A stretch of DNA of 64,000 nt from Bacilli bacterium (GCA_036657515.1 JAVXGI010000002.1:45652-109651), one strand, 5' to 3'; counted from the stretch's first letter, positions 7,806 to 52,953 are shown. The notes: a model not told the origin generated them from the sequence alone. Made by a program: numbers and translations.

Positions 7806-7849
7806 TGACTTAATTACTACTAATAAATTACTAATTTGACTAACAATTA
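7806..7849 (+). repeat. 11-bp phased repeat array R1 (TGACTTAATTA CTACTAATAAA TTACTAATTTG ACTAACAATTA)
   Basis: Read directly. Two perfect xTACTAAT units lie 11 bp apart, flanked by degenerate units. It sits between the lepA stop and the Fic-like gene. Confidence 0.7.
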
Positions 7850-7878
7850 TGTGTTTTTTTTGATATTATATATAAAAG

Positions 7879-9285
7879 ATGAATTTGGGAGAATGCAATA
7901 TGATAGATTCAGAGCTTGCAAATAGATTTACTAATATAAAATACGCTACTAAAAGTGAAGTTTCTAAAGATTTAAACATGACTTTAGTAGACAAAATTTG
8001 GAATGAAATAATTACCTATCGTTCACAATTTTCAGCAGATTTACGCGTAAAAAATGTTGAAGGATCACGCTATTCATTATGCTTAGCTCCATTAATAATG
8101 AACAAAATCAACTCTTTGGAAAGAAAAATTGGAAAATTAGATAGAAATTTTTCAAAAATTGAAAATATAGCATCACAAAATAAAATTATATGCGAATGTA
8201 TTTCAAATGAACTATTTTTTGTTGCAAAACACGTTAATATCGATTGTGATGAATCATCATTACTTTTAATTGCTCAAAACAATTTATCGGCTCCAAGGCC
8301 TGAACAAATGTTTTTATTAACTTATGGTTCATTATTAAAAGATTTACAAAATGAATCATATGCTTCAATTGCAAATATCGAACAATATTTAGGCAAAATT
8401 TCTATTGAAATATTAGGAAAAGATAACGTAGATTATAGACGAAGCAATTCAGATGGTCACAGTTCTATTTATAGCGGAATTTATGCTGAAGCTCCATTTA
8501 CAATGGTAGAACCAATGATTAATGAAATGTTTTCTTTTTTATCAACTAGTGAATTTAATTTTATTGTAAAAATGGCAGTTGTTTTATATTACACTAATTA
8601 TGTAAAACCATATACTTCATACAATGAAGAACTCAGTATACTTATGTCTAAATTCGTGATGAAATGTTCTGATATAGATAACATTAATTATTTAATAAAT
8701 ACTGAAAAATTCCTTCTAAACTCACCAAAACTAGAAGAAATTATACAGGAAACACAAAAAACTTGTGATATGACGTATTACTTAAATTATTTTATTGATT
8801 CAATAGATGAATCATTAAACAAACTTCAGGAAAGTTTAAATGAATTGAGTGTTTCAAGCATTGCTAAAGATTATTATAAACCTGAAGAAAAAACTAAAAT
8901 TGTAGATGTTGAAGAACCAAAAGAAGAACCGGAAAATATTGAACAAAAAGTTGATAACGTTCAAAAAAACGATTTACCTAGTTCGTTAATCATTACTCAA
9001 GATTCAGCTATTACAAATGTTACATTTGGATATAACGAAGATGAAGCTCAAAAAATTGAAACATTTTTATTAGAAAGTGATCCTAATTTGGGAGAGCAAC
9101 AAGCATATTTTTATGCAAGGCATTGTACGATGAACAAATTTTATACAATCGCTCAATATAAAAAGGCACTATGTTGCGCATATGAAACTGCAAGAACTTC
9201 TATGGACAAATTAGTCTCAAATGGGTATTATAGAAAAGAAGCTCACAAGAATAAATTTATTTATACACCAGTTAAAAGGAAATAA
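7879..9285 (+). CDS. Fic-fold-like protein with degenerate active-site motif and C-terminal winged-helix-like domain
   Basis: NFIVKMAVVLYYTNYVKPYTSYNEELSILMS aligns by eye to the Fic core (..IHPFxDGNGRxxR..), with His, Gly and Arg replaced. An acidic linker is followed by a C-terminal wHTH-like ...TARTSMDKLVSNGYY. The true start may be ATG 7900, which has a GGGAG SD upstream. Confidence 0.5.
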   Translation: MNLGECNMIDSELANRFTNIKYATKSEVSKDLNMTLVDKIWNEIITYRSQFSADLRVKNVEGSRYSLCLAPLIMNKINSLERKIGKLDRNFSKIENIASQNKIICECISNELFFVAKHVNIDCDESSLLLIAQNNLSAPRPEQMFLLTYGSLLKDLQNESYASIANIEQYLGKISIEILGKDNVDYRRSNSDGHSSIYSGIYAEAPFTMVEPMINEMFSFLSTSEFNFIVKMAVVLYYTNYVKPYTSYNEELSILMSKFVMKCSDIDNINYLINTEKFLLNSPKLEEIIQETQKTCDMTYYLNYFIDSIDESLNKLQESLNELSVSSIAKDYYKPEEKTKIVDVEEPKEEPENIEQKVDNVQKNDLPSSLIITQDSAITNVTFGYNEDEAQKIETFLLESDPNLGEQQAYFYARHCTMNKFYTIAQYKKALCCAYETARTSMDKLVSNGYYRKEAHKNKFIYTPVKRK

Positions 9286-9297
9286 GGAGAAAAAAGT

Positions 9298-9555
9298 ATG
9301 ATGTTAAGCGGAGAATGGTACAACAATCCTGGAATGATCTTTCTATTTATTATAGTTTTATTTGCTATTATAGCTTTATCTGCCTTTCTAATTAAAAAAT
9401 ATTACAAACCTTTTAAGAAAGAAAAAGAAGAAAGTGATAAGGAATTATCCGAAAAAAAGGAAGAAGATATTGCTTCCGAAGAATTAAATCGCATTCTTGA
9501 ACCAGTTGACGAATTAAAAGAAACTGAAAAAAAGAATAATGAAACTGAAAACTAA
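9298..9555 (+). CDS. Small single-pass membrane protein with acidic C-terminal tail
   Basis: AAGGAGA SD 8 nt upstream. One TM helix (IFLFIIVLFAIIALSAFLI) followed by a K/E-rich tail. Overlaps the hemW start by 17 nt. Confidence 0.5.
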   Translation: MMLSGEWYNNPGMIFLFIIVLFAIIALSAFLIKKYYKPFKKEKEESDKELSEKKEEDIASEELNRILEPVDELKETEKKNNETEN

Positions 9556-10642
9556 TAAAATAAAATCCTTATACATACATATTCCATTTTGTGAACATAT
9601 TTGTTCATATTGTGATTTTACAAAGATTATTAGAAATGATAATCTTTCTTTTTTATATATTTTAGATTTACTTAAAAGTTTAAAAGGATATATTAAAGAA
9701 AAAAAGAAATTTTCGACAATTTATATAGGTGGTGGAACGCCAACTTGCATCGAGCCATTTTTGCTAAATATTTTACTTTCGTATTGCACAAAATTATTAA
9801 AAACAACCTATGAATTTACTGTTGAAGCTAATGTTGAATCTATTAATAAGGATACACTTCGCATTCTTAAAAATAATAAAGTTAATAGATTGAGCATTGG
9901 TGTTCAAACTTTTTCTGATGAACTACTGCTTAAATTAAATAGAAAACATACAGGAAAAGAGGCAATTAATGCTGTTAATCTTGCTTTCAAATATATTAAC
10001 AACATCAATATCGATCTAATGTATGGATTTCCCTTTTCATCTTTTGAATGTTTAAAAACCGACCTCGAAATCGCAAAAACATTACCAATCAATCATATTT
10101 CAACTTATTCCTTATTAATAAATAAAGGAACTTTAATTTATAATCAGGGATATAAAGAAGTGGATGGCGATACATTAAGAAAATATTTTGATTTTATTAA
10201 GAACGAATTAAAGAAAACGGGTTTTAAACAATATGAAGTTTCTAATTTTTCAAAACCAGGATATTATTCAAGAAATAATATTACATATTGGAAAAATGAA
10301 GAATATATTGGTTTAGGAGCAGGTTCATCTGGATTTGAAAATAAAGTACGTTATACATATACTAAAAATATCAATTCTTATTTATATGATCACAAAAGAA
10401 CTGAAGAAATAGTCACGGTTGAAGATGACATTAAATATCAAATTTTTCTTAATTTACGCACCACAAATGGTATTGATCGTAAGTTGTTTAAAGAAAAATT
10501 TGGATTCGAAATATTGGAAAAATTCGGTGATTTTTTTACAAAATTGCAAAAAAAATCACTGATTAAAATCAATAAAAACACGATAAAATGCACATATAAC
10601 GGTTTAATGATATTAGATAATATAATTTTAGAAATATTTTAG
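9539..10642 (+). CDS. hemW: Radical SAM heme chaperone HemW (HemN-like, oxygen-independent coproporphyrinogen oxidase family)
   Basis: HIPFCEHICSYCDF radical-SAM CxxxCxxC motif. Sits in the lepA-hemW-hrcA position. Confidence 0.9.
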   Translation: MKLKTNKIKSLYIHIPFCEHICSYCDFTKIIRNDNLSFLYILDLLKSLKGYIKEKKKFSTIYIGGGTPTCIEPFLLNILLSYCTKLLKTTYEFTVEANVESINKDTLRILKNNKVNRLSIGVQTFSDELLLKLNRKHTGKEAINAVNLAFKYINNINIDLMYGFPFSSFECLKTDLEIAKTLPINHISTYSLLINKGTLIYNQGYKEVDGDTLRKYFDFIKNELKKTGFKQYEVSNFSKPGYYSRNNITYWKNEEYIGLGAGSSGFENKVRYTYTKNINSYLYDHKRTEEIVTVEDDIKYQIFLNLRTTNGIDRKLFKEKFGFEILEKFGDFFTKLQKKSLIKINKNTIKCTYNGLMILDNIILEIF

Positions 10643-10665
10643 CACTTTAGTATTGACACTGCTAA
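10639..10665 (+). promoter_or_regulatory. Degenerate CIRCE-like inverted repeat overlapping the hemW stop and the hrcA -35 box
   Basis: TTAGCACTT-N9-CACTGCTAA compared with the consensus TTAGCACTC-N9-GAGTGCTAA. Only the outer TTAGCA/TGCTAA halves are complementary. Confidence 0.4.
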
Positions 10666-10681
10666 TTTTTGAGTTTATAAT
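10653..10681 (+). promoter_or_regulatory. Sigma-A promoter of the hrcA-grpE-dnaK-dnaJ operon
   Basis: TTGACA (10653-10658), N17, TATAAT (10676-10681). Confidence 0.8.
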
Positions 10682-10685
10682 ACTT

Positions 10686-10712
10686 TTAGCATTCAAAAGA
10701 ACAGAGTGCTAG
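10686..10712 (+). promoter_or_regulatory. CIRCE operator (HrcA binding site)
   Basis: TTAGCATTC-N9-GAGTGCTAG, matching 16/18 positions of the CIRCE consensus. It lies between the -10 box and the hrcA SD. Confidence 0.9.
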
Positions 10713-10728
10713 AAAGGAGATTATAAGT

Positions 10729-11757
10729 ATGCTTAATCGACGTGATTATATATTAAAATTGATTATAGAACGTTTTGTGCAAACTGCTCAACCAGTTGGT
10801 TCAAAAACACTTATTGAAAACTATGATCTCCCATTTAGCAGTGCTACTATTCGCAATGAAATGCAATTATTAGAAAACGATGGGTTTCTGGAAAAGACTC
10901 ATACATCTAGTGGAAGAGTTCCTTCTTCTAGGGGATACAAATACTATATTGAAAACCTTAGAGATAAAAAGAAGAACAATAAAATTAAATTTGAACTTCA
11001 AACAATCCTAAATGAAAGAACACAAACTATTGAAGATATGCTTAAAGAATCGTGCGAGATTTTATCTGAAATGACTAATTTAGTAAGTTTGGTTTTAGGA
11101 AATAACACTAGTGAAGAAACTTTAGCTTCTTTACAAATGATTCCAATTGGCAATAATAGTTCAACTGTGATCTTTGTAACAAATAGAGGCGCGGTTGAAA
11201 GCAAAACCTTCTTCTTTGATAAAAATATTAAAGTTGATGATCTTGAAAAATGTATCGCAATGCTTAACAAAAGATTAGTTGGTACAAGTGTTTCTGAATT
11301 AGTACCAAAAATGAGGCTCTTAGAACCTATCATTCACGATTATATTATCGATGGCGACGTAATTTATCAAACAATCCTTAAAACACTTGGAACGTTAGCA
11401 AATGATAAAGTTGTAATGTATGGAAAAGAAAAATTGTTAGATCAACCAGAGTTTAGTAATGATCCAGAAAGAATTAAAGATGTCATAGATTTATTTGAAT
11501 CTCCTACATTTTTTAAAGAAATTACGGAAAAAGTTCAATTTATTGATAAAGATATTACTGTTAAAATCGGTGGTGTAGATGAACGTGATGATATATCTAT
11601 CGTCTCAGCAAAAATCTATATTCCTGGAGTAGGAGAAAATGTTATCAGTTTAATTGGACCGAAAAGAATGAATTATGATAAAGCATATGAAGCAATCGAG
11701 ACACTTGTCGATGAGCTTAATAAGAAGTTTGAAGAAATATCGAAAGGAGATAGTTGA
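10729..11757 (+). CDS. hrcA: Heat-inducible transcription repressor HrcA
   Basis: N-terminal wHTH (PVGSKTL..SSATIRNEM..LE..GFL.K.HTSSGRVPS). 342 aa. Heads the dnaK operon. Confidence 0.95.
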   Translation: MLNRRDYILKLIIERFVQTAQPVGSKTLIENYDLPFSSATIRNEMQLLENDGFLEKTHTSSGRVPSSRGYKYYIENLRDKKKNNKIKFELQTILNERTQTIEDMLKESCEILSEMTNLVSLVLGNNTSEETLASLQMIPIGNNSSTVIFVTNRGAVESKTFFFDKNIKVDDLEKCIAMLNKRLVGTSVSELVPKMRLLEPIIHDYIIDGDVIYQTILKTLGTLANDKVVMYGKEKLLDQPEFSNDPERIKDVIDLFESPTFFKEITEKVQFIDKDITVKIGGVDERDDISIVSAKIYIPGVGENVISLIGPKRMNYDKAYEAIETLVDELNKKFEEISKGDS

Positions 11758-12374
11758 AAATGGTTAATTTAAGAAGCGAAGAGATTAAAAAACAAACAGA
11801 AGAAAATGTGAAAGAAGACGAAAAGAAAGAAAAAAAGGTTCCACTTGCTAAACTTGAAAAAGTTCAAGAAGAATTACATGCCGTTGAGGCTGACCGTGAT
11901 TCATGGAAAAATAAGTATTATAGCGTTTACGCGGACATGGAAAATCTTAGAAAAGTTATTGAAAAAGATCACCGTGAGGCAATGAAATATCGTTCGGAAG
12001 GATTTGTAATTAATTTAATACCATCACTTGATAGTTTCCACATGGCAACTCAAATTGAAGGTAAAACAGATGAAATGAAAGCATTTATTACCGGATTTAG
12101 ATATATATATAACAACATTATTAGTGCTATAGCAGAAGAGGGCGTAACAGAAATAACTCCTAAAGTTGGAGATAAGTTTGATGAAAAAACAATGCATGCT
12201 CTTGATACGGTAGAACAAGAAGGTGATGAAAATATTATAGTTAATGTCGCAGGAAGCTGTTATAAAATATATGACAGAATCATTAGACCAGCTATGGTAT
12301 ATGTTTCAAAAAAACCGGCAGTTAAAGACGAAAAGATAGACAAAGACGAAGTCATAGAAGAAAACATAGATTAA
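11754..12374 (+). CDS. grpE: Nucleotide exchange factor GrpE
   Basis: Operon position, length and the C-terminal GrpE fold region (..HMATQ.., IRPAMV). The start is TTG 11754 or ATG 11760; I cannot decide between them. Confidence 0.9.
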   Translation: MKMVNLRSEEIKKQTEENVKEDEKKEKKVPLAKLEKVQEELHAVEADRDSWKNKYYSVYADMENLRKVIEKDHREAMKYRSEGFVINLIPSLDSFHMATQIEGKTDEMKAFITGFRYIYNNIISAIAEEGVTEITPKVGDKFDEKTMHALDTVEQEGDENIIVNVAGSCYKIYDRIIRPAMVYVSKKPAVKDEKIDKDEVIEENID

Positions 12375-12392
12375 TCAAAAGGAGGAAATTTT

Positions 12393-14231
12393 ATGGCAAA
12401 AGAAATTATTTTAGGTATTGATTTAGGTACAACAAATTCGGTCGTTTCATACTTACAAGCAGATGGAAAGGTAAAGGTTATTCCAAATCCAGAAGGTACA
12501 AATACTACCCCATCCATTGTTGCTTTTAAACAAAATGGTGAAGAAATCATTGGTAACGCTGCAAAACGTCAAGCAGTTACTAATCCTGAAAACACCATCA
12601 GCTCAATTAAAAGAGAAATGGGTTCATCTAAAAAAGAACATATTGCATGTTTGAATAAAGATTTTACACCACAAGAAATTTCGGCAAAAATTCTTGCTTA
12701 TATGAAAGATTATGCTGAAAAAGCTATTGGCACAAAAGTAGAAAAAGCAGTTATTACTGTTCCAGCATACTTTAACGATTCACAACGTCAAGCAACAAAA
12801 GATGCAGGTAAAATTGCAGGACTTGATGTCGTTAGAATCATTAACGAGCCAACCGCTGCTGCTCTTGCTTATGGTCTTGAATCGAAAAAATCTGAAAAGA
12901 TTTTAGTTTACGACTTAGGCGGAGGAACATTCGACGTATCTATTCTTGATATCGGCGATGGTACATTTGAAGTTATTGCTACATCAGGCGACAATAAACT
13001 TGGCGGTGATGATTGGGATGCTCTTATTGCTAGATGGATTAGAGAAGAAGTTAAAAAACAAACAGGAACAGATATATCCGATAAAGTCGCACTTCAAAGA
13101 TATACTGATGCTGCAGAAAAAGCTAAAATTGAATTATCAAGTTCATTAAGCACCGTTATTTCATTACCATTTATTGGTATGAATGCAAGTGGTCCAATTA
13201 ACTTCGAAACAACCTTATCACGTGCAAAATTTGAAGATTTAACTAAAGATTTATTAAGAAGAACAGAAGAACCAGTAAGAAAAGCATTATTAGATGCTAA
13301 ATTAACTGCTTCTGATCTTGATCAAATTATCCTTATTGGTGGTTCAATTAGAATGCCAGCTGTTCAAGAATCTGTTAAGAAATTAACAAATAAGATGCCT
13401 AACTACTCAGTTAGTCCAGATGAAGCAGTCTCAATTGGTGCTGCTTTACAAGGCGGAATCGTTTCTGGAGATGTTAAAGACGTTGTTTTACTTGACGTTA
13501 CTCCTTTAACTCTTGGTATTGAAACAATGGGTGGAGTTATGACTCCTCTTATTACAAGAAATACGACAATTCCAACCACTAAATCACAAATTTTCTCAAC
13601 TGCTGCTGATAATCAACCTGCAGTTGACATCATGGTTTATCAAGGTGAACGTCCAATGGCTCATGATAATAAATTATTAGGTCATTTCCAACTTACAGGT
13701 ATTGCTGCAAAAAGAAGAGGCGAACCTCGCATTGAAGTTACTTTCTCAATTGACGTTAATGGTATTGTTAAAGTTTCAGCAAAAGATTTAGATAGCAACA
13801 AGGCTCAAGAAATTACAATTTCCGGATCTAATGGTTTATCAAAAGAAGAAATTGATCGCATGGTTCGTGAAGCTGAAGAAAATAAAGATGCTGATGAAAA
13901 GAGAAAAGAAGAAATTGAAGTTAAAAATAAGGCTGAACAATTTATTAACTCAATTGATACTTCCCTTGCAGAAAAGGGAGATTCTATCGATGCAAAGCAA
14001 AAAGAAGATACTATTAAATTAAGAGATGAACTTAAAGAAGCTCTTGATAAAAATGATATTGAAACATTACGCAACAAGATGTCTGAATTAGAAAAAGCTG
14101 CTGAATATATGGCACAAGCACAAGCTCAAGGACAAAATCCAACAGAAGGTGCACCTGATGCTTCTTCTTCAACTGAAGGTCAAACAACAGCTGATGATGT
14201 AGTTGATGCTGATTTTACTGATAAAAAGTAA
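12393..14231 (+). CDS. dnaK: Chaperone DnaK (Hsp70)
   Basis: [27 protein letters not shown] signatures. 612 aa. Confidence 0.98.
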
Positions 14232-14245
14232 AAGAAAATTGAATC

Positions 14246-14281
14246 GAGTATTAGAGGCAAATGCCTCTAATACTCATTTTT
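14246..14281 (+). terminator. Strong hairpin plus T-run between dnaK and dnaJ (partial terminator or processing site)
   Basis: GAGTATTAGAGGCA-aa-TGCCTCTAATACTC (14-nt perfect arms) followed by ATTTTT. The dnaJ SD GGAGG follows immediately. Confidence 0.7.
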
Positions 14282-14292
14282 GGAGGTAAATT

Positions 14293-15432
14293 ATGGCAGA
14301 AAAAAGAGATTATTACGAGACGCTTGGTGTTCAACGCACCGCTACAAAAGATGAAATCAAAAGTGCTTATAGAAAGCTTGCAATGAAATACCATCCAGAT
14401 AGAAATAAAGAACCTGGTGCTGAGAAAAAATTCATGGAAGTTCAAGAGGCATATGATGTACTTTATGATGATCAAAAAAGAAAGACATTTGATCAATTTG
14501 GAAGTGCGGCTTTTGACCAAAATGGTTCAGCATCTGGCTTTGGTGGAGGAAATCCTTTCCAAGGCGGATTTGGTAATTTTGGCGATTTAAACGATATATT
14601 TTCTCAAATGTTTGGTGGTGGAATGGGTGGTGGAAGAAACTCTCAGAGAAACGGACCAAATAGGGGTGATGATACATTAATGAGAGTTAAGGTTAGTTTT
14701 ATTGATGCTATTATGGGCAAAAAAATAACTATACCTGTAACTTATGATAAGGTTTGCGATACATGTAATGGAACAGGAGCTAAATCTAGCAGTGATATCA
14801 AAACTTGTTCACATTGTGGCGGAAGTGGTTATGTAAGAACAACAAAACAAACTCTTTTCGGTGCAATGGAAAGTGAAACTACTTGTCCATATTGTGGTGG
14901 AACGGGCAAAATTATTGCTAATAAATGTCCTGATTGTGGTGGAACTGGTTCAAAACGTGTTAAAGAAAATATCGATATTGCTATACCAGCCGGAATTAAT
15001 GCTGGCCAACAAATTAGAGTTAAAGGCAAAGGCATGAAAGGCTCTAATGGCGGTTCTAACGGCGATTTATACATAGAAATTGTAATTCAGGAAGATAATA
15101 TTTTTAAAAGAGATGGTAATGATATTCATTTAAATTTAGAAATTGATTTTGTTGATGCTGCACTTGGAATATCAATGGATGTTAAAACTGTTTACGATAC
15201 TATCAGTTTAAAAATACCAGCAGGTTCACAACCAAATACTGTTTTAAAGTTATCTGGTAAAGGTATTAAAGATATGCGTAATGGAAGACCAGGTGATGAA
15301 TACGTTCATATCATTATTAAAACGCCAACAAACCTTAATACAAAACAAAAAGAATGTTTAAATGATTTTAAAATAAACAGTAATTCACAAAATAATCCAT
15401 TTTCTCGTTTTAAGGATAAATTAAAGAAATAA
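14293..15432 (+). CDS. dnaJ: Co-chaperone DnaJ
   Basis: J-domain (YHPDRN), G/F-rich region, four CxxCxGxG zinc-finger repeats. Confidence 0.97.
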   Translation: MAEKRDYYETLGVQRTATKDEIKSAYRKLAMKYHPDRNKEPGAEKKFMEVQEAYDVLYDDQKRKTFDQFGSAAFDQNGSASGFGGGNPFQGGFGNFGDLNDIFSQMFGGGMGGGRNSQRNGPNRGDDTLMRVKVSFIDAIMGKKITIPVTYDKVCDTCNGTGAKSSSDIKTCSHCGGSGYVRTTKQTLFGAMESETTCPYCGGTGKIIANKCPDCGGTGSKRVKENIDIAIPAGINAGQQIRVKGKGMKGSNGGSNGDLYIEIVIQEDNIFKRDGNDIHLNLEIDFVDAALGISMDVKTVYDTISLKIPAGSQPNTVLKLSGKGIKDMRNGRPGDEYVHIIIKTPTNLNTKQKECLNDFKINSNSQNNPFSRFKDKLKK

Positions 15433-15454
15433 TTAAAAAATTATTACGAAATAA

Positions 15455-15463
15455 TGGTATAAT
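15455..15463 (+). promoter_or_regulatory. Extended -10 promoter element (TGgTATAAT) upstream of the zinc-ribbon/TM2 gene
   Basis: TGGTATAAT lies 17 nt before ATG 15481. Confidence 0.45.
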
Positions 15464-15480
15464 CATTTTGTGAGAAATGT

Positions 15481-15936
15481 ATGTTAAAGTGTAAAAATTG
15501 TGATCATAAATTAACAAAATTTGATCGTGATCTTTGTCCATATTGCGGAGCAAGAAATCCAATTGATGAATCTTCAACTGAAACGATTGATGTAACGCAA
15601 ATAATAGACAATATCGAGAATATCGATCATAAAGAAAAATTTGTAAGAAAGAGCAGAAAAACTTATATCATTTTAATGATGATTTTAGGAATTTTTTCTG
15701 CTCATTTATTTTATATAAAACGTTACTATCAAGCTGCTTATTTAATTGGAGCTAATGCTTTATTTATTGGTGGTGGAGGTTATCTTTTAAGTATTTTTGA
15801 AATATTTACTAAATCACAATACTATTTAAACTGGATAGTGGCATTAGGCGTTGTTTTAGGTCTTTATATTATTTTAGGAACTTGTACAATATTTTTTGGA
15901 GAACCAAAAGATAATGACAATGAGGTATTAAAATAA
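15481..15936 (+). CDS. Zinc-ribbon plus TM2-domain membrane protein
   Basis: CKNC..CPYCG zinc ribbon, then a TM2-like segment (GIFSAHLFYIKRYYQA..). Occupies the position where prmA sits in Bacillus. Confidence 0.6.
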   Translation: MLKCKNCDHKLTKFDRDLCPYCGARNPIDESSTETIDVTQIIDNIENIDHKEKFVRKSRKTYIILMMILGIFSAHLFYIKRYYQAAYLIGANALFIGGGGYLLSIFEIFTKSQYYLNWIVALGVVLGLYIILGTCTIFFGEPKDNDNEVLK

Positions 15937-16649: not shown

Positions 16650-16652
16650 AGT

Positions 16653-17420: not shown

Positions 17421-17421
17421 T

Positions 17422-18699: not shown

Positions 18700-18757
18700 T
18701 TATTATTACGTTATAAACGATGTTATAGCACTATTTAAATAATGTGTCAAAAATTTA

Positions 18758-18786
18758 TTGTAAAAATATTTTATAATGTATATAAT
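18758..18786 (+). promoter_or_regulatory. Putative promoter of rpmF
   Basis: TTGTAA-N17-TATAAT, about 25 nt upstream of the AAGGAG SD. Confidence 0.45.
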
Positions 18787-21156: not shown

Positions 21157-21162
21157 ATTATT

Positions 21163-29482: not shown

Positions 29483-30347
29483 ATATAAATTCAGATATAT
29501 CAATTATTGTTTTCAATGATGTTGAAGAACCACTGATTATAGCTGCATGTAAGTGATTTTTTAATAAGGAAGTTTTAGAAACCGCATCTTGAAGACTTTC
29601 TAGCAAAATCACTTCTTTAACATCGCACTCTTTAACTGCATAATTATAAAGTTCTACAGTGTTCGAAGATAAACTAGATCCTATAATAACGAGTATATCA
29701 AAATCATCACTAGATATTTTTGATATTACTTTTTGCCTTGATAAGGGAATTTGACAAAGTGTATTCTCTACAATGAGATGACTTTGTCCGTTTTCTTTTT
29801 CTAATTTTTCTATTGAAGAAAAAAACTTTTCATAACTAATTGTTGTTTGGGCGAATACAACATATTTTTCATTTTCAATTAGGTTCATATTGTTTTCATC
29901 ATATAATTGGATATCATCCTTAAATGTCTGCAAATAGCATTCTGTTTCAGGATGACCCTTTTTGCCAACTAATATGAGTTTATAACCATTAGTTTTATAT
30001 ATGCTGAGTTTTAAAAGTATATCTTTAATAATGACGCAGGTAGTATCTAAAAATTCAATATTGTGTTCATTACAATATGTTTCGAGATTATAATTGTGAC
30101 CATGTGCAGTAAAAACTACTAAATTACTACTAGTTAACGACTGTAAAACACCTAGATATTCACTAGTAGTGCAATCTATTGTTTCTACACCATGATCTGA
30201 GAATGTTTTAATTATTTCGTTGTTGTTGATCAATTTTCCCAAAGTAACCATCTTTTTGTTTGATGTTTTACTTTTATTAATAACTGTATCAATTGCCCTC
30301 TTGACACCAGGACAATAACTAGTTGGTTTTAATAATGTATATTTCAT
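29469..30347 (-). CDS. ispH: 4-hydroxy-3-methylbut-2-enyl diphosphate reductase (MEP pathway)
   Basis: YCPGVKRAI (Cys1), VFTAHGH, DTTC, AQTT, TLCQ Fe-S ligand pattern. The 3' end overlaps the convergent nif3-family gene by 14 nt. Confidence 0.9.
   Translation of the reverse strand: MKYTLLKPTSYCPGVKRAIDTVINKSKTSNKKMVTLGKLINNNEIIKTFSDHGVETIDCTTSEYLGVLQSLTSSNLVVFTAHGHNYNLETYCNEHNIEFLDTTCVIIKDILLKLSIYKTNGYKLILVGKKGHPETECYLQTFKDDIQLYDENNMNLIENEKYVVFAQTTISYEKFFSSIEKLEKENGQSHLIVENTLCQIPLSRQKVISKISSDDFDILVIIGSSLSSNTVELYNYAVKECDVKEVILLESLQDAVSKTSLLKNHLHAAIISGSSTSLKTIIDISEFISTLD
30116..30148 (+). repeat. Possible fifth 11-bp phased array (R5), inside ispH coding sequence
   Basis: CTACTAAATTA CTACTAGTTAA CGACTGTAAAA in the same + strand orientation. 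It may simply reflect the codons for LTSSNLVVF. Confidence 0.3.
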
Positions 30348-35215: not shown

Positions 35216-35443
35216 ATGTTTTTAATAGAATTTGATGGAAGCTGGTTAGGAATAGCCATTGCTTGTCTAGTTATCGGTCTTGCTGTTGGTTTCTTTGTAA
35301 CAAGAAAACTTATTCAAAAAGAAATGCAAAAAAATCCACCAATTAGTGAAAAAATGATTCGTGCTATGTTTGTTTCAATGGGTAGAAAACCAAGTGAAGC
35401 TCAAATAAAACAAGTAATGAATTCAATGAAAAATTCAAAATAA
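35216..35443 (+). CDS. yneF: UPF0154/YneF-family small membrane protein
   Basis: One TM helix plus NPPISEKMIRAMF.SMGRKPSEAQIKQVMN, typical of YneF. Adjacent to plsY-parE-parC, as in Bacillus. Confidence 0.8.
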   Translation: MFLIEFDGSWLGIAIACLVIGLAVGFFVTRKLIQKEMQKNPPISEKMIRAMFVSMGRKPSEAQIKQVMNSMKNSK

Positions 35444-35470
35444 AAGAAGAACGAAAGTTCTTCTTTTTTT
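35443..35470 (+). terminator. Rho-independent terminator after yneF
   Basis: AAAGAAGAAC-gaaa-GTTCTTCTTT followed by a T-run. Confidence 0.8.
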
Positions 35471-35544: not shown

Positions 35545-35588
35545 CTACTAATTTGCTACTAATAAACTACTATTTCTTTACTAAGAAG
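35545..35588 (+). repeat. 11-bp phased repeat array R2 (CTACTAATTTG CTACTAATAAA CTACTATTTCT TTACTAAGAAG)
   Basis: Read directly, with an exact 11-nt register. It overlaps the stop codon and last 6 codons of plsY (minus strand). Extra out-of-phase TACTAA copies occur at 35509 and 35539. Confidence 0.85.
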
Positions 35589-42090: not shown

Positions 42091-42093
42091 GAT

Positions 42094-43629: not shown

Positions 43630-43632
43630 ATT

Positions 43633-45301: not shown

Positions 45302-45584
45302 AGAAGTAGCAGATTTAAAATATATTTCACATAGCGAACCAATAATTAAATATACAATTGGCAAAGACTATTTAAAAGATTCGACAGTTGATATGCTTGT
45401 AAAAGCCCTTGAAGCCCATGAGCTTATAAAAATACATGCATTAAAAAGTATCGAAGCAACAGCAAAAGAGATCGCAGAACAACTTAAAAACAACCTTAAC
45501 TGCGAAATAGTACAAGTTATTGGTCGTGTAATAACAATTTTTAAAGTTAGTCAAAAAAAGAAAGGTATAAGTAAGCGCATATGA
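45288..45584 (+). CDS. yhbY: CRM-domain RNA-binding protein YhbY/YqeI
   Basis: 98 aa, ..HELIKI.. and GR.ITIFK pattern, plus synteny. Confidence 0.8.
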   Translation: MLKSKEVADLKYISHSEPIIKYTIGKDYLKDSTVDMLVKALEAHELIKIHALKSIEATAKEIAEQLKNNLNCEIVQVIGRVITIFKVSQKKKGISKRI

Positions 45585-46732
45585 AAATATTATTATTTCC
45601 AGGAAGTTTTGATCCATTTCACTCAGGACATATTAATGTTATTCAAGCAGCAAATAAACAATTTAATTTTGATAAATTATTTTTAATACTTTCTAAAAAT
45701 TCTGTAAATAAAAAAGCAATTGCTACTGTCGAACAAAGACTTGATATGTTAAACCTTGGTTTACCATATTGCAAATGTGATATAGAAATAAATGATTACG
45801 AGTTTACTAAATCAAAAAGCGGATATACTATAGAAACAATTAGATACTTTAAAGAAATTTTTCCGAATGATGATTTATATTTGCTAATAGGATTGGATCA
45901 AGTTAATGTGTTTAATGCATGGAAAGAAGCAAAAGAGATAGAAGACCTAGTAAATATAATTTATTATGATAGACCTGGATATTGTGAAACAAGTCCGAAT
46001 ATTGTCAAATACAATATGATGAAAGTTAATGGATTCTCACGCGACATCTCAAGTACTGACATCCGTAATCTCAACAAATTAGATGCTCCATTACCAATTT
46101 TGAATTATATTACACTTCATAAGCTTTATTTTGCACGTGATGTTTATAATTTATTAGATTTAAGAAGATATAGACACTCAATGAGCGTAGCAAATCTCTG
46201 CTATGAAATCGCAGAAGCAAATGGATATGATAAATTAAAAGCAAAAGCATTTATGGTGGGATTACTTCATGATATAGGAAAATATGCTGATATCACTGAA
46301 TTAAATACAATTATGCACGAATATTTTAGTGAATTTATTGATTTGCCAGTATATGCGTATCATCAATTCGTTGGAAGCTACTATGCCGCAACTCAATTCA
46401 ACATTTTAGATTCTGATATCATAAATGCAATTAAATATCATTGTACTGGTAGAAATGGAATGTCTGTTCTTGAAAAAATAGTTTATGTAGCAGATAAAAT
46501 CGATCCATTAAGAGGGTATGATTCCAAATACATGATTGATTTATGTAAAGCAAATATTACAGGTGGTTTTATTTATGTTTTAAGTCAAAATATTGAATTC
46601 AACATGAACAAGCATAAAGAAAAAGACAATTATTCAGATAACAGATTAACGGCAGATTGTGTAGATGACTATTTAAACAATAAACATCACCAAGAAAGGG
46701 AAAAAAATAATGATGCAAGATTTGATTACTAA
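45581..46732 (+). CDS. nadD: Fusion protein: nicotinate-nucleotide adenylyltransferase NadD plus HD-domain YqeK (Ap4A hydrolase family)
   Basis: N-terminus GSFDPFHSGH and ISSTDIRN (NadD). C-terminus RYRHSMSVA..GLLHDIGKY (HD). These are two adjacent genes in Bacillus but one 383-aa ORF here. Confidence 0.88.
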   Translation: MKILLFPGSFDPFHSGHINVIQAANKQFNFDKLFLILSKNSVNKKAIATVEQRLDMLNLGLPYCKCDIEINDYEFTKSKSGYTIETIRYFKEIFPNDDLYLLIGLDQVNVFNAWKEAKEIEDLVNIIYYDRPGYCETSPNIVKYNMMKVNGFSRDISSTDIRNLNKLDAPLPILNYITLHKLYFARDVYNLLDLRRYRHSMSVANLCYEIAEANGYDKLKAKAFMVGLLHDIGKYADITELNTIMHEYFSEFIDLPVYAYHQFVGSYYAATQFNILDSDIINAIKYHCTGRNGMSVLEKIVYVADKIDPLRGYDSKYMIDLCKANITGGFIYVLSQNIEFNMNKHKEKDNYSDNRLTADCVDDYLNNKHHQEREKNNDARFDY

Positions 46733-47021
46733 GCTTATTGAAAAGAAAGCAGAGGATGTAGTATTAATTGATACAACACCACTTACTCCATATTATGATG
46801 AATGTATAATCGCTACTGCATTAAACCAAAGACATATAAAGTCATTAATAGAATTCACTGAAGACTATTTAATTGAAAACGGTTTAAGAGTTAAAGATAT
46901 ACAAGGTACTCCTGATTCTGAATGGATGATTATCGATGCATATGACACAATCATTCATATCCTCACAGATAATGAAAGAACAAGACTATCATTAGATCAA
47001 ATTATTAAAAGAAATAGATAA
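46710..47021 (+). CDS. rsfS: Ribosomal silencing factor RsfS
   Basis: KKAEDVVLIDT, EWMIIDAYDTIIHI, R..L.LD pattern. 103 aa. Confidence 0.9.
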   Translation: MMQDLITKLIEKKAEDVVLIDTTPLTPYYDECIIATALNQRHIKSLIEFTEDYLIENGLRVKDIQGTPDSEWMIIDAYDTIIHILTDNERTRLSLDQIIKRNR

Positions 47022-47036
47022 ATATTTCTTTTTTTA
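47010..47036 (+). terminator. Weak AT-rich hairpin plus T7 at the rsfS stop
   Basis: AGAAATA-gataaa-TATTTCT followed by TTTTTTT. 7-bp stem with one G:C pair. Confidence 0.35.
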
Positions 47037-47046
47037 TTATATGCTA

Positions 47047-47074
47047 ACTTCGCATAATATCTATTATGTAATTA
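47047..47074 (+). other. dif: dif chromosome dimer resolution site (XerC/XerD)
   Basis: ACTTCGCATAA-TATCTA-TTATGTAATTA matches 21/28 of B. subtilis dif (ACTTCCTAGAATATATATTATGTAAACT) and 19/28 of E. coli dif (GGTGCGCATAATGTATATTATGTTAAAT). The inner palindrome CATAA-N6-TTATG is intact. It lies in the intergenic gap where gene orientation flips, and xerD is 1.9 kb away. Confidence 0.8.
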
Positions 47075-47174
47075 TATTATTAAAATTGTCGATGTAAACG
47101 TTATTTTAAAGTAATATTAATAGTCTTACTATTTATCAGTCTAAATATATAGTTAAGTTTCCCACATTATATGA

Positions 47175-47218
47175 TTACTAATTTAATACTAGATAACTAC
47201 TAATTAACTGCTAATCAT
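47175..47218 (+). repeat. 11-bp phased repeat array R3 (TTACTAATTTA ATACTAGATAA CTACTAATTAA CTGCTAATCAT)
   Basis: Read directly, with an exact 11-nt register. The last unit contains the stop codon of the 160-aa orphan (minus strand). It lies 100 bp from dif. Confidence 0.85.
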
Positions 47219-47693
47219 CTTTGTTCATATTGAAAAATTCGCGTCCGATTTGTCTTTGTACTTTATATAACTGTATCTTTTCTAATATTATGTCCGGATT
47301 ACATGAAGCTGAAATTAAAGATTCAAAAGAGTCTAATGCCATATTTTGTATTAGATCTATTCTTGTAAACCCTACTTCGGTTCTATTTATATCACTAATC
47401 ATTCCAATTTCTATATCACCAGGTTTTACATTTAACCTATATATCGGTCGGAAAATAATGCCACAAACTAAAATTCTGTTTAATATAATATTCGATAAAC
47501 ACAACAAATAAACAGTGGTCCCTATACCATGCGAATCAGTTTTCACAGATGAATAGATATAACCTGCTTTATAGTTACGACTCAAACTCCTTTCCATACT
47601 GGGAAACTCTTTAATAGAGAGACCTTCTAGTATGATTTTCTCTTGTTTTGTTTGTTGTTTAGCACATTCGTATTTATAGGGACCAATTTCCAT
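47211..47693 (-). CDS. Orphan 160-aa protein (no family recognised) adjacent to dif
   Basis: Intact ORF with an AGGAGG SD 8 nt upstream. Bracketed by the SD-sequestering hairpin at its 5' end and array R3 at its 3' end. Confidence 0.5.
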   Translation of the reverse strand: MEIGPYKYECAKQQTKQEKIILEGLSIKEFPSMERSLSRNYKAGYIYSSVKTDSHGIGTTVYLLCLSNIILNRILVCGIIFRPIYRLNVKPGDIEIGMISDINRTEVGFTRIDLIQNMALDSFESLISASCNPDIILEKIQLYKVQRQIGREFFNMNKDD

Positions 47694-47724
47694 AAAAATA
47701 ACCTCCTACTATTTAAGTAGGAGG
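47694..47724 (-). terminator. deoB terminator hairpin whose 3' arm is the SD of the orphan gene (copy B of the twin element)
   Basis: On the minus strand, CCTCCTACT-taaat-AGTAGGAGG (9-bp perfect stem), then TTATTTTT, then ATG at 47693. Confidence 0.75.
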
Positions 47725-47759
47725 CAATTTTATTTTTTAGTAAATTATTTTATTTATTT

Positions 47760-48950
47760 TTATAAGATTTCTTTAATTGGCGTTCCAATCATTGTTTTAT
47801 CCGATTTTAATCCTAAATCTTCAAGAACTGTTGCGCCCATATCGGCAAATTGTTGTCTTTCGCCAACATATCTTCCATCTTTGATTTGTTTTGAATAAAC
47901 AATAAGTGGAACTTGTTCTCTAGTATGATCACTTCCAACCCATGTTGGATCGTTTCCATGATCTGCTGTAATCATTAATAAATCAGTGTCACGCATAATA
48001 TCCATTAATTCTTTTAATTGTGTGTCAAATGTCTCGATAGCTTGAGCGTATCCATTATAGTTTCTTCTATGGCCGTATTCACTATCAAACTCAACTAAAT
48101 TAACAAAACATAAACCTTCATAATCGGTTGAAGCAATTTCTTTAATAGTTTTATTCATTCCATCGACATTTGAAATGGTTTTTTGTGTTTGTGAAACGCC
48201 TACATTGTTGAATATATCGGCAATTTTGCCAATACATGAAACTGTATAGCCATTGTTTTTTAAGATATCCATTGCGGTAATTCCAGTTGGATCTAATGCA
48301 ATATCATGTCTATTTGGCGTACGTTTAAACGAATTTTTGTCTTTTCCAATAAATGGTCTTGCAATAATTCTGCCAACTCTATATTCAGGTTTCATACAAA
48401 CTTCTCTTGCAATTTCACAGCATCTGTAAAGTTCTTTAACAGGTATCGTGTCTTCGTGAGCACATAATTGTAAAACTGAATCAGCAGATGTATAAACAAT
48501 AAGTTTTCTTTCGTTCATACATTCTTCACCTAGTTTTTCAAGAATTTCAGTGCCGGAACTTGCATAATTACCTATTAATTCATATCCAGTTTTTTCTTCT
48601 AACTCTTTAATGAGAGCTTCAGGAAATCCCGTGTCTGTGAAAGAAATAAATGGTTTAGTTGTTAAAATACCCATCATTTCCCAGTGTCCAGTCATCGTAT
48701 CCTTACCATTTGAATGTTCATTTAGCTTAAAAGTGTATGAATTAAGATGTTCTGCTTTATCTCCTGATAAATTTGGAACCAAATCCTTAATTCCTAACAT
48801 TCTTAATGTTGGAATTTTGATATTAGGGACCTTTTCGACAATATGTCCAAAGGTATTAGCACCTTCGTCATTGAATTTTTTTGCATCAATGGCATTTCCG
48901 ATTCCTAAGGAATCCATAACAATAATAATAGTTCTTTTATATTTTTTCAT
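47760..48950 (-). CDS. deoB: Phosphopentomutase
   Basis: IVMDSLGIG, GKDTMTGHWE, EFDS.YGHRR, ADHGNDPT motifs. 396 aa. Confidence 0.95.
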   Translation of the reverse strand: MKKYKRTIIIVMDSLGIGNAIDAKKFNDEGANTFGHIVEKVPNIKIPTLRMLGIKDLVPNLSGDKAEHLNSYTFKLNEHSNGKDTMTGHWEMMGILTTKPFISFTDTGFPEALIKELEEKTGYELIGNYASSGTEILEKLGEECMNERKLIVYTSADSVLQLCAHEDTIPVKELYRCCEIAREVCMKPEYRVGRIIARPFIGKDKNSFKRTPNRHDIALDPTGITAMDILKNNGYTVSCIGKIADIFNNVGVSQTQKTISNVDGMNKTIKEIASTDYEGLCFVNLVEFDSEYGHRRNYNGYAQAIETFDTQLKELMDIMRDTDLLMITADHGNDPTWVGSDHTREQVPLIVYSKQIKDGRYVGERQQFADMGATVLEDLGLKSDKTMIGTPIKEIL

Positions 48951-48975
48951 AATTTATACCCTGCTATATTTTAGA

Positions 48976-49860
48976 TTATTTTCTTTTATTATACAAATCA
49001 TAAACATTAAAAATGCGATTATTTGATAAATGTGTGTAAATTTGAGTAGTTTCTATATTCGTATGGCCCAACATTTCTTGAACTAAACGCAAATCAGCAC
49101 CTGCCTCAAGCAAATGTGTCGCGAATGAATGTCTTAATGTGTGCGGCGATATTTCTTTATCTATGTTGGCTATTTTTGCATATTTTTGCATTTTTACGTA
49201 GATATGTTGTCGAGATATTGGCTTTCCTTCATTATTAATAAATAAATAAGGACTTTTCTTTTTGTTGTTGACATCTCGTACCTCTAATATGTACTTATTA
49301 ACCCGTTTTAATGCATAGTTATTAATTGGAACTCTTCTTTGCTTATTGCCTTTACCATAAATGATTACGAAATTTTCAAGAGAATTTATTTGCGTTTTCT
49401 TTAAATTAGTAAGTTCACTTATACGTAATCCACATGAATACATCACTTCTAGCATTGCTTTATCGCAAAGCTCGTCTGGTTTTTCAATATTTGGAGCATT
49501 GAGTAATGCATCAACTTCCTCTATCGATAAAAACGAAGGCAAGTACTTTTCTTTTTTTGGTATTTCAATATTAAGATTAAGTTTATTTTTAACTATTCCT
49601 TCATCTGTCACGAATAAATAGAAATTCTTTATTGTTGAAATCTTTCTTCCTGCTGATGAAGAACTCATGCCTTCAATTAGCATATCTTTTACATAATCAT
49701 TTAAATCAGATTCCAATAAATCATCCGTTGTTTCCTTGCTACTGTAAAATTCGAAAAATTTCTTTAAGTCATTGTTATAGCTTAAAAGCGTATTTAAAGA
49801 TAAGCCCTTTTCGACTTGTAAATACTGTATATATCTTTCAATTGCTTCATTTATTTTCAT
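48976..49860 (-). CDS. xerD: Tyrosine recombinase XerD (RipX-like)
   Basis: [57 protein letters not shown] (R-H-R-Y catalytic set). Adjacent to deoB, as with Bacillus ripX-drm. Confidence 0.9.
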
Positions 49861-51050
49861 TTGTTTTTCTTTAATAGCTCACTAGTTCTCTTTAATTTAC
49901 AAGTCGCATCATTGATATCTTTGTTAAAGCTATCAATGATAGTTTTTGTTTGATCCTTTTCTTCATAATATTTATAATTAAATAACGTCATTTGTGTCAT
50001 GCTGTCGGATTTTTCAGTAAATTTAGATAAAATTACTCCAATTTGCCTAATAGGTTTTTTATTATAAGATCTATCTACTAACTTATTCAATTCATCTTTT
50101 AATAGTAATTTATCATCTGTGGCAAATTTAAGTTTTTGGGCGCATGTTTGAGTAGCAAAATCGGTATATCGATAAGAGATAGTAATTTCTTCAGTAAACA
50201 TTTGTAATTCCAAAAACTTAGAAAAAACATAGTCAAAACAATCAAACAAATAGTTTTTAATTTCGTCTATGTTGTCGATATCGTAAGGAAGAGTTGTTCT
50301 ATTACTTATTGATTGTTGATTATCGTAATACCCTGTTATAACGGTGTTATCAGTTCTTCCTTCTAATGCATTTGTAATATCTTTTGTGTATTCTCCATAA
50401 AATTTCATTATAAATTCATCTTTTGATACGATAGCAGTATATAGATCTTTAATAGTTTTAATATTATGTTCAATTAACTTTGGAGCAGTAGCTTTACCTA
50501 TTCCAAAATATGATCCAACTGGAAGCGGAAATAGTTTATCTTTAATATCAGCTCTTTTTAAAATACTTATACCCATTGGTTTTTTAAGATCTGAGCCCAT
50601 TTTTGCTAAAAACTTAGTGGTTGAAATGCCAATTGAGCATTTCAACCCTGTTTTTTTAAACAAATCCATTTGAATTCCTTTAAAATACTCAAATGGATTT
50701 GCCACGTTTTTAATTGCATCTGTAAAATCAGCAAAACATTCGTCGATGGATGTTTGCTCAACAAGAGGAGTGTATGATTTTATCAATTGAATAAACTCAA
50801 TTGATAAAACTTCGTAGTAGTTAAAATCAACAGGTATTATTATTACGCTAGGACATAGTTCTTTAGCCTTAAAAGTAGGCATACCACTGTGTATGCCAAA
50901 TTTGCGAGCAGCATAAGAACATGTTGAGACAATTCCAGAACGCCCATCTCCGCCAACAATAACTGGTTTGTTTTCAAGGTACGGATTACGAAGTTCTTCT
51001 GCTCTTACAAAAAATGCGTTTAAATCAATGTGCGCAATAATTTTAGCCAT
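49857..51050 (-). CDS. dinB: DNA polymerase IV (Y-family)
   Basis: [29 protein letters not shown] motifs. The TGA stop overlaps the xerD ATG. Confidence 0.93.
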
Positions 51051-51080
51051 AATAAAATTATAACTTATTAAAGAGATTAA

Positions 51081-52928
51081 TTAAATATTTAAGAACAAAT
51101 CATCTAAAGATATTTTGAGTTCGTTTAAACCTTCTTCAACGGATTGATGTTCAATCAATTTATTGTCGATTGCAATGGAAATTATTTGTCCTTTATAATT
51201 ATGTTTAATTAAATAATCAATAAATTCGTTATTAAAGCCATTTTTAACCCCATAGACGTTATAAATTATGATTTTCGAGTATTTGACTATCGTTTGATCA
51301 ATAAGGCCGTAATCAAGCGGTTTTTGATATATTGCATTTATTAAATCTACGTTGATATTTGATGAGTTAATTCGTTCTGCAATTTCGTTAATAATAGGAC
51401 CAAAGGAAACTATAACGGTATTAGCTTGTTTTGTCGATTCCATATTCCATTTTCCATAACCTAAATATTCATTTTTGCCACATTCTGTTATCTCACATTT
51501 TGGATATCTAATAACAAAAAGACTTCTTTCTTTCATTGATTCTTCTATTAATGAAGAAATAAGAAATTTGTTACTTGGCATCGAAACACTAGTATTAGGT
51601 AAAGAAATAAAGAAAGATTCATCAAAAATACCATGATGAGTTGGGCCATCATTTCCTGCAAGACCAGCTCTATCTATTAAAAGAGTTAAATTAAAATTCT
51701 TTCGAGCTATATCGTTTGCTATTTCATCAAAAGCTCTTTGTGAAAACGTTGAATATATAGATAAAATTGGATGAATATTAGATAAACACAGTCCAGCTGC
51801 CAAAGAAAACATATGTTCTTCTGCTATGCCGACATCTTTTACCCTTTCTTGGCCAAATCTTTGTATAAATTTTTCGAAGTGGGAACCAACTAATGTTCCT
51901 GGACAAAGCAACATTGTATTATTGTACTTTTCCATTATTTTTTCGATTTGATATGATACTATTTCATTTGAACTATTAGTATTAATATGTTCTGAACATC
52001 CTTTTAAAGGATCGAATTGAGCAACTCCATGATAATAACCATTTTCATCATGCTCAGCTAAAGGATATCCGAAACCTTTTTTCGTTCTTACATGAACGAC
52101 AACAGATTTATTGCAAATCCTTGCTCTTTGAATTGCTGATTCAACTTTTTGTTCGTTGTTTCCATCGATAATTCCGATATAATCCATGCCTAAAGAACTA
52201 AATATATTATTCCTTATAAATAAACCTTTTAGATAATTTTTAATTAAATATGAGCATTTATAGATAAAATTGCCGAACTTTCCTAATTTTAAAATAACTT
52301 TATATCTAGCTTTAAATGAATTATAAAATTTTGAGGTCGATATTTTTGCAAATAATTGTGTAACTGTTCCCACGGATTTTGAAATAGACATACCATTATC
52401 ATTTAAAATAACAATAATTTTATGATTTGCAAAATCTGAATCGTTAAGAGCCTCAAAAGCTAATCCATTAACTATAGATGCATCTCCAATTACGGTGACT
52501 ATGTCATATTTATCGCCATTTAAATCTCTTACTAGTGCCATTCCTAAAGCAGCACTTAACGAGTTTGATGAGTGTCCACTTTCAAAAAAATCATATTTAG
52601 ACTCGTTAATTGAAGGAAAACCGGATATTCCGCCTTTTTGTCTTAAATTTTTTAATGATCTATTAGTTATTAATTTATGTGCATAGCATTGATGACCAAC
52701 ATCAAATAAAATTTTATCCTTATCGAAATTAAATATTCTATGTAATGCAACTGTTAATTCTACTACACCAAGGTTGCTTGACAAGTGACCGCCATTAGTA
52801 GAAACGGCATCTATTATTTGTGCTCGTAAAAAAGAACAATAATTTTTAATTTCTTTTTTTTGTAAAGTATTTATTGTTTTGCTATCAATTTGTTCAAAAT
52901 TTATAATATCTACTAATTTTCTACTCAT
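51081..52928 (-). CDS. dxs: 1-deoxy-D-xylulose-5-phosphate synthase (MEP pathway)
   Basis: GGHLSSNLGVVELT, GDASIVNGLAFEALN, IAEEH, DGPTHHG. Its first 6-7 codons lie inside repeat array R4. Confidence 0.95.
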   Translation of the reverse strand: MSRKLVDIINFEQIDSKTINTLQKKEIKNYCSFLRAQIIDAVSTNGGHLSSNLGVVELTVALHRIFNFDKDKILFDVGHQCYAHKLITNRSLKNLRQKGGISGFPSINESKYDFFESGHSSNSLSAALGMALVRDLNGDKYDIVTVIGDASIVNGLAFEALNDSDFANHKIIVILNDNGMSISKSVGTVTQLFAKISTSKFYNSFKARYKVILKLGKFGNFIYKCSYLIKNYLKGLFIRNNIFSSLGMDYIGIIDGNNEQKVESAIQRARICNKSVVVHVRTKKGFGYPLAEHDENGYYHGVAQFDPLKGCSEHINTNSSNEIVSYQIEKIMEKYNNTMLLCPGTLVGSHFEKFIQRFGQERVKDVGIAEEHMFSLAAGLCLSNIHPILSIYSTFSQRAFDEIANDIARKNFNLTLLIDRAGLAGNDGPTHHGIFDESFFISLPNTSVSMPSNKFLISSLIEESMKERSLFVIRYPKCEITECGKNEYLGYGKWNMESTKQANTVIVSFGPIINEIAERINSSNINVDLINAIYQKPLDYGLIDQTIVKYSKIIIYNVYGVKNGFNNEFIDYLIKHNYKGQIISIAIDNKLIEHQSVEEGLNELKISLDDLFLNI

Positions 52929-52953
52929 AAACTACTACTTAACTACTTTTACT
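52910..52953 (+). repeat. 11-bp phased repeat array R4 (CTACTAATTTT CTACTCATAAA CTACTACTTAA CTACTTTTACT)
   Basis: Exact 11-nt register. The first 28 nt are 26/28 identical to R2. It spans the xseB stop (TAG TAG), a 6-nt gap and the dxs start codon. Confidence 0.8.

Follow-up and report, generated by a model that had tools for sequence, protein, structure and literature searches.

What, if anything, reads the short arrays of an 11-bp unit that lie at gene junctions, and sometimes within genes, in a 64,000-nt stretch of Bacilli bacterium GCA_036657515.1 (JAVXGI010000002.1:45652-109651; the whole stretch is hereafter the window)? Almost nothing is known of the cis-regulatory and architectural DNA sites of uncultured Bacilli with reduced genomes. 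A first-pass annotation made from the sequence had listed five arrays, R1 to R5, and all five quoted sequences are present where it had placed them; we add a sixth, within relA (Table 1). We found that these arrays, 33-55 bp long with three to five copies of a unit built on a (C/T)TACTA core, belong to a real family that is kept at the same junctions in related uncultured gut and rumen Bacilli. Most units consist of (C/T)TACTA, then AT, then three bases that vary and are mostly A or T; across the 12 units of R2, R3 and R4, core positions 2-5 never change, while the spacer does. The explanation we favour, at somewhat better than even odds (roughly 0.55), is that the arrays are phased docking sites to which an oligomerising, sequence-specific double-stranded DNA (dsDNA)-binding protein would bind. 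The array family appears to be undescribed, a literature search by unit sequence (CTACTAAT, AGTAGTAAATT) having returned nothing relevant; the unit appears to be new, but the kind, phased direct-repeat protein-binding arrays, is known.

Chains of TACT at exact 11-nt spacing occur at 35546 (four copies), 47176 (three) and 52911 (four), on the plus strand only. When all 4-mers were scanned at periods of 7 to 30, TACT at period 11 was the sole combination to give three separate arrays at a period that is not a multiple of three, the other recurrent chains having multiple-of-three periods and consisting of common coding words. The exact 11-nt register proposed for R2 to R4 is specific to that period, and Tandem Repeats Finder, run independently, recovered these three arrays and an identical consensus unit. 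The identity of R2 and R4 at 26 of their first 28 nt, also noted in the first-pass annotation, can be read directly from the sequence, and the excess over shuffled sequence that its proposal implied is borne out by a three-unit pattern (TACTAAT-N4-TACT-N7-TACT, at most one mismatch), which matched seven times against 0.02 expected. On a consensus score not trained on the arrays, set against 200 third-order Markov simulations (null mean 17.1, 95th percentile 18.2, maximum 19.5), R2, R4 and R3 exceed the null maximum and R1, R5 and the relA array reach only its extreme tail (Table 1). The first three are thus far beyond chance, and the others are marginal by window statistics alone; relatives support R1 clearly, and R5 and the relA array less directly.

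The comparative data consist of the 64 kb of the window genome and ~20-kb pieces from relatives (L-numbered loci). Orthologous regions were retrieved through homologues of plsY, dxs and the gene 3' of R1, and several extra loci came from a pattern search and so are ascertainment-biased. The only proteins identical to the plsY product come from a handful of assemblies made from public sequencing runs (SRR258203xx); one that is 92% identical occurs in NCBI metagenome-assembled genomes (MAGs) labelled 'Bacilli bacterium', GCA_036651135.1 and GCA_036654355.1 among them. Runs of three CTACTA cores number five at period 11, whereas periods 9, 10, 12 and 13 have none. Across the 199 kb of the window and its homology-retrieved relatives, period 11 yields 20 arrays against 0-2 at any other period from 8 to 14, and unrelated permutations of TACTA yield none in the 264 kb reached when pattern-found loci are added.

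R1, R2, R3 and R4 each have a counterpart at the equivalent junction in relatives with 43-60% identity in the flanking proteins. Counterparts of R1 are kept in L323 and L325 and are present in inverted orientation in L327 and L328; those of R2 are found in L245-248, L249, L131, L317 and L329, those of R3 in L250, L252 and L330, and those of R4 in L250, L252 and L254. Conservation in relatives, which the first-pass annotation had made a test of its proposal, extends to the sequence itself: in relatives of ~60% protein identity, with flanks both coding and non-coding, array identity exceeds that of both flanks for R2 against L249 (0.80; flanks 0.56 and 0.52), R3 against L252 (0.76; flanks 0.38 and 0.59) and R4 against L252 (0.89; flanks 0.70 and 0.50). 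Judged by these alignments, the arrays are under purifying selection. Approximate unit numbers and positions are kept across species, and the (C/T)TACTA core across lineages of 27% to 47% guanine-cytosine (GC) content; a 47% GC MAG with the same gene order has arrays after plsY and after ispH. Across R2, four independent metagenome assemblies of one strain do not differ, indicating that the arrays are not hypervariable. The genes around the arrays are housekeeping genes in an order conserved across relatives, with no adjoining rep or par genes, and the arrays' proposed association with synteny breaks or insertions did not hold up, as relatives with the same gene order carry them at the same junctions. 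Pattern scans of other gut and rumen Bacilli MAGs revealed further arrays between an ftsL-like gene and ftsA (four MAGs), after groEL, at rpmG/efp and mnmA/alaS, and just upstream of a 406-amino-acid (aa) gene.

The placement of several arrays touches the proteins encoded beside them. As first reported, the TAG stop codons of plsY, the 160-aa gene near R3 and xseB fall within arrays. R4 spans, on the minus strand, the C-terminus and stop of xseB, the 6 nt that follow and the six opening codons of dxs. The family is short and easily recognised, and selection on it has sufficed to mould the opening codons of dxs and the closing codons of xseB and plsY and to write arrays over coding sequence, which would be an unusual case of DNA-level selection overriding protein termini. 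Exact array positions appear to turn over locally while an array is retained in the neighbourhood. The xseB/dxs junction of L330 lacks an array and a five-unit array lies ~250-400 bp off, inside xseA, where the sole unit whose TAG would be in frame reads TGG, so that the frame stays open; the protein alignment has no insertion. The array associated with ispH is antisense to that gene in each of three lineages, in three different places: inside the gene in the window and in L329 (16429-16483), and just past the stop in L131. The position of the relA array is kept in L250 and L330, the latter with a unit flavour of its own (CTACTGAAAAA twice), and conservation of the encoded peptide could contribute here. 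The L329/L330 scaffold, at ~45-49% protein identity to the window, retains the arrays after plsY and after the dif-adjacent gene, which are nearly identical to each other, and uses the unit CTACTAGAAAA at all six of its arrays, four of them within the coding sequences of xseA, dinB, ispH and relA. Such co-variation of units across loci within one genome is expected if a single trans-acting factor reads all arrays, and can also arise by gene conversion between arrays.

The first-pass annotation held that all arrays share one orientation, and this is correct for its five; the relA array is on the minus strand, the lepA-junction array is inverted in L327 and L328, and L330 has sense-strand arrays inside genes. 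The sense strand of the flanking genes reads ATTAGTAG at ~11 loci, with conserved exceptions that carry CTACTAAT on the sense strand at R1, at relA, and at xseA and dinB in L330. The strand bearing CTACT is G-rich at some loci and C-rich at others and follows neither gene strand nor GC skew. The inverted array at the lepA junction (L327, L328) remains just upstream of a -35 box. To judge from these placements, array function is independent of orientation, which argues against an RNA-level element and polar replication signals and favours dsDNA recognition. Of the four units in R1, two are strong (7817-7838) and two weak, and the array overlaps the -35 part of a promoter predicted to be of the extended -10 type (CTAACA-18-TATTAT with an upstream TG). 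A position at or upstream of a -35 region is thus found for R1 and its L327/L328 counterparts and not for R2, R3, R4 or the in-gene arrays. No sigma-70 promoters were found within the arrays beyond chance, the only notable ones being that downstream of R1 and a good sigma-70-like match, TTGCTA-17-TATAAT, which ends 3 bp before R4 and is antisense to dxs/xseB; the latter is probably fortuitous, since it lies within dxs coding sequence and is poorly kept in relatives.

Table 1. Positions of the arrays and of other features mentioned in the text (window coordinates unless a locus is named; scores are consensus scores)
Feature	Position	Strand	Score	Context
R1	7806..7849	+	19.2	between lepA stop and degenerate Fic gene; edge of null
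R2	35545..35588	+	23.3	four units; last codons and TAG stop of minus-strand plsY, plus 3' flank
R3	47175..47218	+	20.5	four units; supplies TAG stop of 160-aa lineage-restricted gene
R4	52910..52953	+	22.3	four units; wholly coding on minus strand
R5	30116..30148	+	19.0	three units in ispH coding sequence, antisense to ispH; marginal
relA array	60789..60832	-	19.5	four units within relA, CTACT on sense strand; marginal
Degenerate Fic-fold protein gene (candidate binder)	7900..9285	+		directly 3' of R1
Predicted promoter overlapped by R1	7840-7869			extended -10 type
Sigma-70-like match	52879-52907	+		near R4
Bidirectional terminator	35442-35467			~75 bp from R2
dif-like Xer recombination site, AACTTCGCATAATATCTATTATGTAATT	47047-47074			at GC-skew and gene-strand flip; kept in L250, L252 and L330
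Short box	47157-47168			between R3 and dif
160-aa gene	47211-47693	-		next to dif and R3
XerC/D-type recombinase gene	48976-49860	-		
MraZ-type boxes	L155 ~4102-4135; L315 ~2164-2200; L198 ~1783-1815			between -10 box and mraZ start codon
Bacteroidales arrays, examples (L125-L244)	L171 4099-4169; L172 7306-7365; L231 7285-7355			

If the arrays are docking sites of this kind, each would present three to five sites, with the core and ~5 mostly A/T bases in every 11 bp. This spacing would place the sites roughly on one face of the helix, so that protomers could assemble head-to-tail and bind cooperatively, probably on bent DNA. The resulting complexes, at junctions and sometimes in genes, might work locally as an operator, as a barrier that separates transcription units or as an anchor for nucleoid organisation. 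Several observations weigh against this interpretation. Most arrays lie away from obvious promoters, and several are between convergent genes or in coding sequence, locations that are unusual for a classical operator. The unit, compared by eye with the PhoB, PhoP, WalR and SaeR consensuses, matches none of them. Bending is predicted for any sequence with an 11-bp period, so selection may act on curvature itself. TACTA in the window occurs at 0.44 of the expectation from base composition and at 1.00 of that from a Markov model, and this corrected ratio gives no signal of the genome-wide avoidance of TACTA seen in genomes with Rok. Finally, the link between the arrays and the one binder we can propose, a degenerate Fic protein, is drawn from adjacency at a single locus and from precedent.

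Comparable layouts are known from response regulators, plasmids and other chromosomal regulators. The Escherichia coli Pho box has two 11-bp units of seven conserved and four A/T-rich bases, and Bacillus subtilis PhoP recognises TT(A/T/C)ACA at an 11-bp period. The arrays resemble PhoB/OmpR boxes in being head-to-tail repeats at 10-11 bp of a core and an A/T-rich spacer, in two to four or more units, and in the position of R1 and its counterparts in relatives at or just upstream of a -35 box. They differ in that (C/T)TACTA is unlike the CTGTCAT, TTAACA, TGTWAH and GTTAA-N6 motifs and in that most arrays are off promoters, some in genes or between convergent genes. The PhoB-type likeness suggested at first holds for the core-plus-A/T-spacer layout and fails for the consensuses compared; the iteron-like or winged-helix interpretation put forward with it is plausible. 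Tandem 11-bp direct repeats also occur in parC of plasmid R1, where the iterons are bound by ParR, and in pMV158, where they are bound by RepB, and both nucleate cooperative complexes; the present arrays are instead chromosomal, dispersed, short (3-5 units) and set beside housekeeping genes. A plasmid or phage iteron or partition centromere was accordingly discarded as an identity for the arrays, given these neighbours and the lack of rep/par genes. MraZ boxes, which are direct repeats phased at about one helical turn in the same genome group, were ruled out because their core, period and location differ: they consist of three AAAGTGG(T/G)AG repeats at a 10-bp period directly upstream of mraZ. 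We observed boxes of this type in L155, L198 and L315. The core also matches the binding preference of Rok, a winged-helix nucleoid protein of B. subtilis known only from some Bacillus species, which binds in clusters and shapes the chromosome. Reading through the minor groove, Rok favours TACTA and AACTA over all other pentamers (PMC6212790). Given this preference, a winged-helix reader of the array core is known to exist. The invariant TACTA of the arrays, and the AACTA of some units, are the two top pentamers of Rok; in contrast, Rok sites are not described as 11-bp phased arrays, the window has no Markov-corrected depletion of TACTA, and no Rok homologue was found, no search aimed at one having been made.

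The gene directly 3' of R1 had been called a 468-aa orphan, whereas it belongs to a widely conserved family with 834 homologues. In the window it encodes 461 aa. All loci inspected have this gene in the interval from lepA to hemW, with a gene for a small membrane protein of ~85 aa next after it, and an array stands upstream of it in five of five lineages. Its AlphaFold2 model (mean predicted local distance difference test score, pLDDT, 83.7) comprises an N-terminal winged-helix-like module of three helices and two strands, a Fic-like core, a disordered linker and a C-terminal winged helix that is nearly invariant across 49 homologues. The top PDB matches are CbFic2 (8cil) and SoFic (3eqx), and the Fic motif is degenerate (KPFE.Y.EEIA in the family consensus). 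CbFic2, a Fic protein, uses its winged helix to bind DNA, and its relative CccR is a repressor of its own promoter (PMC10628234). Together with the winged-helix modules and the array upstream in five lineages, this precedent makes the Fic-like protein a testable candidate, and as a weak one it might autoregulate via R1, an array that overlaps the -35 part of the promoter predicted for its gene. We regard as doubtful the tentative proposal that this protein binds the arrays. If it does, a pseudo-enzyme with a well-studied fold would have gained a new role.

A broader version of the protein-binding explanation is more speculative and in our view unlikely: the arrays would be cis-acting sites for a hitherto unknown system of chromosome organisation or global silencing in a clade of uncultured gut and rumen Bacilli, read by the catalytically dead Fic protein recruited as a winged-helix DNA binder. 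Arrays with a CTACTAAT core in the Bacteroidales might then reflect the same or a convergent mechanism. Many such tandem 11-bp arrays were present among the matches listed for rumen and gut Bacteroidales MAGs (Paludibacteraceae, Prevotella and others), with 3-8 perfect or near-perfect units, C-rich spacers (AAC, CAC, CCT) and at least 13 arrays in one MAG. They are all intergenic, mostly upstream of varied housekeeping genes, and have no Rfam match. They share the core, the exact 11-bp period, the intergenic location and the gut or rumen habitat with the Bacilli arrays, and differ in phylum, in having many copies per genome and in their neighbouring variant units, which share AATCAC rather than CTACT.

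One alternative to protein docking is that only shape matters, with statically bent DNA at gene boundaries favouring, for example, gyrase or a non-specific nucleoid protein and no sequence-specific reader. The curvature anticipated in the first-pass annotation is indeed predicted, a wedge model giving the arrays 41-67 degrees per 33 bp against a window mean of 22 degrees, which places them at the 93rd-99.9th percentile of window bend, each percentile for an array being taken from the maximum over several positions. A period near one helical turn and a function independent of orientation would also suit bent DNA. Many sequences would serve this purpose, yet (C/T)TACTA is kept from 27% to 47% GC, core positions 2-5 are fixed in R2 to R4 where the spacer varies, and the L329/L330 genome uses a single unit variant at every array. 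We therefore consider curvature alone quite unlikely.

The setting of the window might point to a signal for replication or segregation at the terminus, such as a Ter-like polar fork barrier, a KOPS-like FtsK-orienting sequence or a matS-like organiser. GC skew and gene strand both flip at ~47 kb, next to a dif-like site, indicating that the window covers the replication terminus. R3 is ~100 bp from this site, and lies within ~100-200 bp of dif in four lineages. In L330/L329, three arrays on one side of dif oppose two distant arrays on the other side; the sixth array, which adjoins dif, shares the orientation of the two distant ones. The arrays of the window, which span -39 to +14 kb relative to dif, do not behave in this way, as R3 and R4 lie beyond dif yet are oriented like R1, R2 and R5 on the other side. 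Across loci CTACT is about equally frequent on the C-rich and the G-rich strand, and other genomes have arrays in the division-gene cluster and 3' of groEL and mnmA. A terminus signal is on balance improbable, and KOPS or Ter polarity in particular was ruled out by the lack of an orientation switch at dif in the window and by the mixed orientation relative to GC skew. The latter also ruled out clustered primase start triplets (CTA/TTA) on the lagging-strand template.

An RNA-level element, in which the (AUUAGUAG-NNN)n tract of a 3' untranslated or intercistronic region would be recognised by an RNase or RNA-binding protein, or would act as an all-frame UAG trap, would account for the prevalence of ATTAGTAG on the sense strand, for the stop of the upstream gene often falling in the first unit (plsY, xseB, the 160-aa gene, L131 ispH) and for the TAG that three 11-nt units supply in all three frames. 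We regard it as very unlikely. Conserved arrays have CTACTAAT on the sense strand, the lepA-junction array is inverted between lineages, and some arrays are 3' of intrinsic terminators (L234, L198, L254). The window (29% GC) uses the standard code with TAA as its main stop (39 TAA, 12 TAG, 9 TGA), and the reverse strand also has TAA in all frames, so that stops arise from the sequence anyway. Neither strand is predicted to form structure, R2 to R4 folding no better than shuffles in either direction (z-scores -1.3 to +0.7, none significant). Rfam had no matches in the window or in 18 related loci, and the window has no tRNA genes. Stop-codon reassignment was ruled out by the standard code, and a Rho loading site on the CUACUAAU strand by reading of the units, which are nearly devoid of pyrimidine-C dinucleotides.

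A neutral, slippage-prone minisatellite or the footprint of a mobile element is extremely improbable: most strict-pattern metagenome matches are perfect tandem repeats from unrelated organisms, which shows that chance does produce simple 11-bp satellites of this core, but the window arrays are imperfect, do not differ among four assemblies, are fixed at orthologous positions in different species and exceed their flanks in conservation, and they have no association with mobile genes and no meaningful similarity to plasmids or phages (three weak partial plasmid matches at E=0.4, no phage matches, and only five viral stretches with the strict pattern). A hypervariable minisatellite was likewise discarded, unit numbers and positions being kept.

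The gene whose stop codon R3 supplies yielded no family match and only three relatives among 1.8 billion representative proteins, and its single-sequence structure model is unusable (mean pLDDT 35). In L250, L252 and L330 the equivalent place is occupied by genes of 160-180 aa with 19-89% identity; to judge by these comparisons, the gene next to dif is fast-evolving and conserved in position. The short box between R3 and dif (reverse complement AATGTGGGAAAC) is kept in L250 and L252, and L330 has a similar sequence, AAATGTTGAAAAC, at the equivalent place. In two relatives the last array unit also forms the 5' side of the stem in an intrinsic terminator: in L155 (2200-2250) AGTAGT pairs with ACTACT, and in L329 (10745-10790) TAGTTTTCAAC pairs with GTTGAAAACTA, followed by a T run.

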